From positions 2,464,001 through 2,528,000 of the forward strand of contig CM000153.2 of assembly GCA_000004695.1 (NCBI GenBank): a stretch of DNA of 64,000 nt, read 5' to 3'. This document shows, piece after piece, positions 17,017-18,785 of the stretch. Below the pieces are notes generated by a model, which searched no databases, was not told the origin of the DNA, and saw only the letters and a list, made by a program, of their open reading frames with translations. Position 1 is the stretch's first letter; the number at the start of each line of letters is the position of its first letter. A program made the translations under genes and the position numbers. The DNA is from Dictyostelium discoideum (Eukaryota).

Positions 17017-18785
17017 TTAAACAAATTTTGTCTTCTTTTTTTTATTTAATTGTTTTTGTTTTGATTGTTCAAGTTTTTCTTCCAATTCTAATTTTCTTTT
17101 CTTTTCTTCAAGTAATTCTTGTGAATTTTGTTTTTGTAAAATTTCAAATTGTTCTTTTAAATTATTTGATGTATTATTTCTGTTGTTGTTGGTGGTGGTA
17201 TCATTTTCATTATTATTATCATTATCATCATTATGAATATTTGCAAATGATGATAATGAACTAGTTGTAGTTTGAGAATTTAAAAATGGTATAAATGATA
17301 TTGATGATGGTAATGATGTCATTGTACTATTATTTGTTCTATTTCTACTATTATTATTTAAATTATAATTCTTTTTTGGTGTTAATTCTACATCATAAAA
17401 TAGTGATAATGGTTCATTTGTTATTATACCATTTGAAGATGAAGTAGTTGTTGTAGTTGTTGTTGAATTTGTATGACTAATAGGTATATTACTAGAATAA
17501 GTATTAAAAATACTTTTTGTTGAATTTTTAATATTTAAATCATTTGAATCAATTTCTAAAACTGTTGAATTTAAATCAGTTTGATTATTATCATAATCAT
17601 TATTATTGGTATTATTATTATTATTATTATTATTATTATTATTATTATTATTATTATTATTATTATTATTATTATTATTATTATTATTATTATTATTATT
17701 ATTATTATTATTATTATTATTATTATTATTATTATTATTATTATTATTATTATTATTATTATTATTATTATTATTATTTATGTTTTGATCAGGATATAAA
17801 TGATTATAGTATTGTAAAAATATTGGGTCATTAAAAAAGTTAAAATCATTTTCAGAGAAATCTTCAACTTTTTGATTCTCTGAAAGTATATTTTGATATA
17901 TATTAATAATTCCACCTTTTTTATAATTATTATTATTTTTTAAATTTCTTCCACCAGTACCAATAGAAACTGATAATGTAGCAACACCACCATTATTTAT
18001 ATTTATATTACTACCAGTACTACTAATATTTGATGTTGATGTTGAAGTTGAGGTTGATGTTGATGTTGCAATATTTACAATTTTATCTAATTTTCTTGTT
18101 AAAAGTTGGTTTGAAATTTGTTGATTCTTACAACAAAACATTAATGGCATAATTAAATGATCTCTAATAAAATCTGAATGTGATTTTCTTGAATCTGAAT
18201 TTATAATACTTTCAATTGGTTCACATTCAAAATTCCATTTAAATGTATAAAATGATATCTTATTTGATATTGTGAATACTAAATTATTTGAATTCTGAAT
18301 AATAATCAATAATAATCTATAATCAATAATCAATAATTTAAATAATTAAAATAATTAAAATAATTTTAAAAAACATACATTTATTGAAATTCTATATGCA
18401 GTATCAGGTTTTTTTTCAATTATTGATTCTCTTAATATACTAAGAATCTTTTCAGTTGGTGAATCTAAATGTGGATTAAATCTCTTAATAATTTTATTTT
18501 AATGTTAATAAAATAAAATAAAATTTCATTTATTTATTTATTTATTTATTTATTTATTAATATTATAAATACATTTTTATCATTTAAAGTTGTAGTAGAG
18601 TCAGAATGTTTAATCCAAACTAATGATAAATCCGATATAATCATTGAATAGGTATCATGTGTAAAATTTGATTTTATAAATAAAGTTGAATTTTCACCAC
18701 TTAAACTATTTCCAATCGTAAATGATTTCCATTCTTTTTCTTTTAGCTCTTCTAATATTTGATTTGTCAATGTTTTGTTATGCAT
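17017..18785 (-). CDS. XLF/Cernunnos (NHEJ1)-like non-homologous end-joining factor, 3 exons
   Basis: Exon 1 runs from the ATG at 18785 to ~18563 (MHNKTLTNQILEELKEKEWKSF...LFIKSNFTHDTYSMIISDLSLVWIKHSDSTTTLNDKN, donor GTATTT). Exon 2 is ~18480-18366 (RFNPHLDSPTEKILSILRESIIEKKPDTAYRISIN, donor GTATGT). Exon 3 is ~18320-17017 (...FYTFKWNFECEPIESIINSDSRKSHSDFIRDHLIMPLMFCCKNQQISNQLL..., then poly-N/S/T and a C-terminal coiled coil). 'YSMIISDLSLVWIKHSD' matches human XLF 'YALLVSDLQQVWHEQVD'. 'FKWNFEC...HLIMPLMFCCKNQQ' matches 'FYWNFHC...HLIRPLMGMSLALQCQ'. Confidence 0.65.

Follow-up and report, generated by a model that had tools for sequence, protein, structure and literature searches.

A very probable XLF/Cernunnos (NHEJ1) orthologue encoded by three exons in Dictyostelium discoideum, with a lineage-specific C-terminal half

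Introduction

[quoted passage not shown] For L115, this role is supported by the literature. Residues W13, K26 and H134 receive the fold-back helix (docking of alphaF), and C123 is buried and mutated in patients (PMC2104711). The very C-terminus of the human protein is its Ku80-binding motif, X-KBM, which the budding-yeast protein Nej1 is reported to lack (2026 preprint). Phosphorylation by Cdk1 holds the Xlf1 of S. pombe in check (PMC4542292). Here a locus in Dictyostelium discoideum, a social amoeba, is described, contained in a stretch of 64,000 nucleotides (contig CM000153.2, positions 2,464,001 to 2,528,000; hereafter the window), which very probably encodes the orthologue of XLF in this species as a three-exon, minus-strand gene for a protein of 531 amino acids. 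An earlier note, made from the DNA sequence, had proposed an XLF-like factor at this place.

Orthologues of NHEJ proteins that other invertebrates lack are reported from D. discoideum, in which the function of Ku has been studied experimentally; PAXX is reported to be absent from it (preprint). In a published reviewer's report of 2006, Dictyostelium is stated to have a conserved XLF whose domain architecture is distinct. The XLF family is already recognised in dictyostelids, and neither the existence of the gene nor its family assignment is new. What is new, and only mildly so, is the map of conserved motifs in the C-terminal half of the protein, notably a tail that resembles X-KBM.

The XLF head domain

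In an hmmscan search of the spliced protein at E<=10, the only match is to Pfam PF09302, the XLF N-terminal domain, and no XRCC4, PAXX or SAS-6 model is reported. The match covers the whole profile (positions 1-115 of 115, residues 18-132) with 72.5 bits and E=4.7e-20, the gathering score being 24.6 bits, and the N-terminal 182 residues alone reach 76.3 bits. This profile search was one of the checks that the earlier note had set for its proposal, which came through it without refutation. Comparison with proteins of known structure leads to the same family: all five matches of a phmmer search of the Protein Data Bank (PDB) are human XLF chains (E about 1e-4), and BLASTP against the human sequence, identical to PDB chain 7LSY_H, gives E=1e-11 with about 23% identity over 180 residues. 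When six dictyostelid XLFs are compared with 28 mammalian ones by hhalign, 142 columns, which take in the head and the beginning of the stalk, align with 95% probability and E=2.4e-8. The full-length profile-profile comparison finds no homology past this point, and over 60% of the protein falls in no XLF-homologous region.

The head carries the motifs IISDLSLVW (residues 49-57) and FKWNFEC (124-130), followed by DHLIMPLM (151-158). Both of the conserved XLF blocks named in the earlier note are thus present, although the spelling LVSDL that it gave for the first is the human one and reads IISDL here. Residue pairs that are invariant between the human and dictyostelid proteins (in this order) include W13/W19, K26/K38, Y34/Y46, D40-L41/D52-L53, V44-W45/V56-W57, N62/N74, L65/L77, F117/F124, W119/W126, F121/F128 and P138/P156. 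Furthermore, human C123 is matched by C130 in all 35 rows except one, and H134 corresponds to H152, which is nearly invariant across the dictyostelid and mammalian rows. Exon 2 aligns with human residues 61-95 and contributes the invariant Leu77, which corresponds to Leu65 of the presumed XRCC4 interface.

Gene structure and orthologues

Are the three exons joined? On the minus strand, the list of open reading frames (ORFs) contains a 79-aa ORF that starts with ATG (18546-18785) and a 438-aa ORF (17017-18333), the two pieces into which, as the earlier note had said, the gene is broken. GT donors and AG acceptors between them were enumerated, and in-frame, stop-free joins were kept. Only two such combinations exist, and the 531-aa model, which runs from an ATG at 18785 to a TAA stop at 17019-17017, is clearly the better one (Table 1). 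It reproduces exactly the span of 17017-18785 and the three minus-strand exons proposed before. Base composition is about 14-33% G+C (about 20% for the window), with long AAT and CAA tracts. The strain can be recognised from three other ORFs of the window that match D. discoideum AX4 proteins exactly (DDB_G0284773, a DUF1183 family protein and DDB_G0284805).

Table 1. Features of the XLF locus and neighbouring reading frames; positions are those of the window.
Feature	Position	Strand	Description
Exon 1	18573..18785	-	codons 1-71; helix alphaA and first beta-meander, including IISDLSLVW
Intron 1	18484..18572	-	89 bp, GTATTT...TTAAG, 95.5% A+T, phase 0
Exon 2	18379..18483	-	codons 72-106; RFNPHLDSPTEKILSILRES..., head helix pair alphaB/alphaC
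Intron 2	18295..18378	-	84 bp, GTATGT...TTCAG, 90.5% A+T, phase 0
Exon 3	17017..18294	-	codons 107-531 and TAA; second beta-meander with FKWNFEC, stalk, long C-terminal region
XLF head domain	18217..18734	-	residues 18-132, span crosses both introns; Pfam PF09302
Predicted long helix, presumed homodimerisation stalk	18052..18186	-	residues about 143-187; AlphaFold2 DSSP
Low-complexity Thr/Ser/Asn/Gly linker	17893..18066	-	residues about 183-240; pLDDT <50, unconserved among orthologues
Conserved motif VEDFSENDFNFFNDPIFLQYYNHL	17797..17868	-	residues 249-272
(AAT)n tract, 56 consecutive Asn	17611..17778	-	residues 279-334
Conserved motif LSLFYDVELTPKKNY	17365..17409	-	residues 402-416; full CDK consensus site T-P-K-K
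E/K-rich C-terminal helix LKEQFEILQKQNSQELLEEKKRKLELEEKLEQSKQKQL	17047..17160	-	residues 485-522; pLDDT 63-85, full-length proxy model
C-terminal tail NKKKKTKFV-COOH, candidate Ku-binding motif	17020..17046	-	residues 523-531
603-aa ORF	15165..16976	+	convergent
129-aa ORF	19195..19584	-	
183-aa ORF	19926..20477	+	

The pieces of the XLF profile fall to successive exons. The 79-aa ORF, which contains exon 1, matches profile positions 1-46 (32.7 bits) and exons 2 and 3 together match positions 52-115 (35.9 bits), while the match of the 438-aa ORF by itself is confined to positions 89-115, with 17.2 bits, under the 24.6-bit cutoff. Coverage is continuous only in the spliced product, and the three-exon model has the highest score of all variants. 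An alternative acceptor at 18448, by which exon 2 is shortened, lowers the score to 55.4 bits, skipping of exon 2 lowers it from 76.3 to 45.2 bits, and the unspliced ORFs, taken as the gene product, all stay below the three-exon model.

To find orthologues, the contiguous exon-3 piece was used as query in an exhaustive HMMER search; the loci of the proteins found were then fetched and the exon structures rebuilt. Five dictyostelid orthologues were found, in which the match begins at residues 102-117: those of D. purpureum (F0ZZ29/XP_003292670), Polysphondylium violaceum (A0A8J4PUE2), Tieghemostelium lacteum (A0A151ZA47), Cavenderia fasciculata (F4PIC9) and D. cf. discoideum (KAN0000387.1). The earlier note had held that XLF homologues are often missed or mis-modelled, and this does not describe the relatives: all five are annotated with equivalent models and carry a precomputed PF09302, and four are named NHEJ1 in UniRef. 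Two negative searches of the protein collection are uninformative. A word-indexed search with the N-terminal 182 residues gave no match in a collection that holds the five orthologues found by HMMER, and it missed these even when they were rows of the query profile. The exact 531-aa product was reported as absent by the same resource.

Both introns recur in the orthologues at the same position and in phase 0. Intron 1 follows ...DK(N/D/S/Q) and is shared by four of the five (D. cf. discoideum, D. purpureum, C. fasciculata, P. violaceum); intron 2 follows ...SIN/INS/CNS/IQS and is likewise shared by four (D. cf. discoideum, T. lacteum, C. fasciculata, P. violaceum). T. lacteum is without intron 1, its coding sequence running on across that junction, and D. 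purpureum is without intron 2; each of the two junctions is therefore read through in continuous genomic DNA of one species. Compared with the locus of D. cf. discoideum, exon 1 is 96.2% identical, exons 1 and 2 are free of indels, both introns carry indels, and of the 14 codon differences in exons 1 and 2 twelve are synonymous and two nonsynonymous. Because the profile scores, the introns and read-through junctions of the orthologues and the substitutions in the sister genome agree, the three-exon model is, on comparative grounds, secure and a pseudogene is ruled out. By its sequence, the gene is under purifying selection.

The annotated model of P. violaceum has six residues (DINMTK) directly after intron 1 (L005 208-296) that all other orthologues lack. 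Since these residues are unique to that model, they suggest that its annotated intron-1 acceptor may sit 18 nt too early.

The stalk and the predicted structure

The motif DHLIMPLM falls at the start of a predicted helix of 45 residues, and the hhalign and BLASTP alignments, which extend into human alphaD, cover the beginning of this presumed stalk. The structure was predicted by AlphaFold2 on the 93%-identical D. cf. discoideum orthologue (P0010) as a proxy for the protein of the window. With five sequences, the full-length model has a mean predicted local distance difference test score (pLDDT) of 39.9, and with 35 sequences the model of residues 1-288 has a mean of 51.5, both of which are low confidence; in the helix 143-187 the pLDDT is about 57-70. 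In the better model the elements come as expected, from an N-terminal helix and two strands through a helix pair and three strands to the long helix, and the eight best Foldseek matches in the PDB are all human XLF chains. However, this model wrongly renders residues 43-60 as a helix. The comparison with the head-plus-stalk fold that the earlier note had called for has the order of elements and the Foldseek matches on one side and low pLDDT and one mis-modelled segment on the other, and the prediction is only weakly informative. As for the coiled-coil C-terminus expected in the same note, a real helix is predicted there, but the canonical stalk is the one that directly follows the head.

The C-terminal half

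The part of dictyostelid XLF past the stalk is specific to the lineage and largely disordered, and it carries short motifs that are conserved. In the VEDFSENDFNFFNDPIFLQYYNHL motif, in which short helices are predicted, D251, F252, F257, F265 and Y268 are invariant in the six dictyostelid sequences. It may possibly be the counterpart of human fold-back helix alphaE (EPFEENSF), which its first residues, EDFSENDF, resemble (hhalign E=0.087, not significant). PF21928, the second Pfam domain of mammalian XLFs, which spans the C-terminal helices that turn back onto the stalk and head, is recorded for none of the five orthologues. The tract of 56 Asn that follows the motif has, by sequence comparison, expanded or contracted very recently, because the 93%-identical D. 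cf. discoideum orthologue has only a few Asn at this place. Long single-residue tracts recur in the window, as Asn in XLF and as Gln in a neighbouring ORF.

Further downstream, L402, L404, Y406, T411, P412 and K414 (LxLxY..TPxK) are invariant among the dictyostelid sequences. This motif includes a consensus site for cyclin-dependent kinase (CDK), and in C. fasciculata and P. violaceum a third phase-0 intron lies immediately before TPKK (loci L004 1254-1323 and L005 1175-1241). SLPSS is located between the motif and the E/K-rich helix, in which E503, R506, E509, E515, K518 and K520 are invariant among the dictyostelid sequences. This predicted helix is dictyostelid-specific and separate from the XLF stalk.

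The last residues read KKKK-x-KFV or KKKIKLI in all five orthologues. In human XLF (sequence verified) they are KVKRKKPRGLFS, written KRKKPRGLFS-COOH, and the tail KKKKTKFV, basic and then hydrophobic, resembles this X-KBM as a pattern. That dictyostelid XLF keeps a vertebrate-type Ku80-binding motif (KKKKxKFV-COOH) together with an invariant CDK-consensus site (LxLxY..TPKK) is a tentative proposal, with the odds rather against it. Control of the protein in the cell cycle through TPKK is a plausible and reasonable idea, because S. pombe Xlf1 is restrained by Cdk1. If the proposal were true, Amoebozoa and Opisthokonta would have split only after the recruitment of XLF to Ku by X-KBM and its gating by the cell cycle had arisen, and D. 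discoideum would offer a tractable system for both.

Neighbouring features

The convergent 603-aa ORF ends 40 bp from the XLF stop codon and has a run of more than 40 Gln, encoded by (CAA)n, near its C-terminus. Its matches in Pfam are sub-threshold only and probably driven by low complexity, and the protein collection has no entry with exactly this sequence. The 129-aa ORF has tandem, coiled-coil-like REREQLK/IEREQLK repeats after a hydrophobic N-terminus, for which Pfam gives only sub-threshold coiled-coil matches. The 183-aa ORF combines a hydrophobic, signal-like N-terminus with a ricin-B-type beta-trefoil lectin domain (PF00652, 30.9 bits, cutoff 29). A scan of the window for tRNA genes found none.

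Function and alternative readings

Going by the known behaviour of XLF proteins, that of D. discoideum would homodimerise through the stalk helix, contact XRCC4 head to head, bridge DNA ends and stimulate XRCC4-ligase IV. Its basic tail, with two hydrophobic residues at the end, might recruit it to Ku80, to DNA at the break or to both, as the human X-KBM does, and the conserved short motifs of the C-terminal half, including the CDK-type T-P-K-K site, are probably regulatory.

Several observations weigh against an XLF orthologue of this kind. At the presumed XRCC4 interface, R64 is replaced by His76 and L115 by Tyr122, both invariant within dictyostelids, and R57, a site of patient mutation in human XLF, aligns with Asp69. 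PF21928 is undetected in the protein of the window, and its homology to the fold-back helix falls short of significance. Furthermore, literature searches gave no functional study of Dictyostelium XLF, and the splicing of the exons is inferred from comparative data only.

Could the protein belong elsewhere in the XRCC4 superfamily, as an XRCC4, a PAXX or something like SAS-6/CCDC61, instead of being XLF proper? The head-plus-stalk fold is common to these families, heads of SAS-6 and CCDC61 turn up lower in the fold searches, and some of the XLF-specific residues of the XRCC4 interface are substituted. Such an assignment is nevertheless very improbable given the hmmscan result, in which PF09302 stands alone, the exclusively XLF matches among the PDB sequences and the eight best Foldseek structures, the presence of the XLF-specific blocks SDLxxVW, WNFxC and HLIxPLM, and the reported absence of PAXX from D. 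discoideum. The chance is slimmer still that the ORFs are unjoined, either as two independent genes or as a decayed pseudogene whose likeness to XLF is a relic. The profile is continuous only in the spliced product, with the 438-aa ORF alone left at 17.2 bits, intron positions are kept and the junctions are read through in the species that lack an intron. Moreover, synonymous changes outnumber nonsynonymous ones by 12 to 2 with no indels in the exons, and the tail motifs are kept in all five orthologues. For unjoined ORFs speak the comparative nature of the support for splicing and the failure to find the exact 531-aa model in the protein collection, a negative that is unreliable in a resource that missed dictyostelid XLFs it contains.

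An equally slight chance is given to a member of the XLF family that has moved, in dictyostelids, from classical NHEJ to another main role, for instance to that of a scaffold acting through the large C-terminal half. The extent of the protein outside the XLF-homologous region, over 60%, would suit such a role, as would the invariant short motifs in this half. However, Dictyostelium proteins commonly have long insertions that are disordered and rich in repeats. The elements of the canonical role, namely the head, the stalk and a tail like the Ku-binding motif, are all kept and conserved, and orthologues of the NHEJ partner proteins are reported in the species. An XLF orthologue that acts in NHEJ thus remains the preferred reading. 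D. discoideum is established as a model in which to study vertebrate-like NHEJ, with orthologues of repair factors that other invertebrate models lack, and the verified exon boundaries and mapped motifs of XLF should be useful in planning knockouts or point mutants. In particular, the conserved tail and the TPKK site lead to testable hypotheses on Ku recruitment and cell-cycle control.

Comparison with known systems

XRCC4 and PAXX have the architecture of a head plus coiled-coil dimer that is predicted for the D. discoideum protein, and a role in NHEJ that it would share with them; PAXX, according to the literature, also has a C-terminal Ku-binding motif. They differ in that the D. discoideum protein has no profile match to either.

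Human XLF (PDB 2QM4, 2R9A, 7LSY) has a homologous head with the SDLxxVW, WNFxC and HLIxPLM blocks and with the residues on which the fold-back region docks, W13, K26 and H134, equivalent to dictyostelid W19, K38 and H152. In both proteins a long helix follows the head, and a basic cluster at the C-terminus ends in hydrophobic residues. Differently from the human protein of 299 aa, that of D. discoideum has 531 aa, about 13 extra residues between beta7 and the stalk, and a low-complexity linker and the 56-Asn tract after the stalk. PF21928 and the fold-back helices are undetectable in it, R64 and L115 are represented by His and Tyr, and its E/K-rich helix and LxLxY..TPKK motif are without a human counterpart.

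S. pombe Xlf1 and S. cerevisiae Nej1, likened here by description, likewise belong to the XLF family outside the metazoans, and each has a C-terminal region that is divergent and disordered. The restraint of Xlf1 by Cdk1 is a plausible parallel to the TPKK site, whereas Nej1 is reported to be without X-KBM, which the dictyostelid tail resembles.

The dictyostelid orthologues differ from the D. discoideum protein in sequence (identity from 34% to 91%), in the poly-Asn tract, which is much longer in AX4, and in single introns, one being lost in D. purpureum and one in T. lacteum and a third being present in C. fasciculata and P. violaceum. What they have in common with it is the architecture, PF09302, the positions and phase of the introns, and conserved motifs from head to tail.

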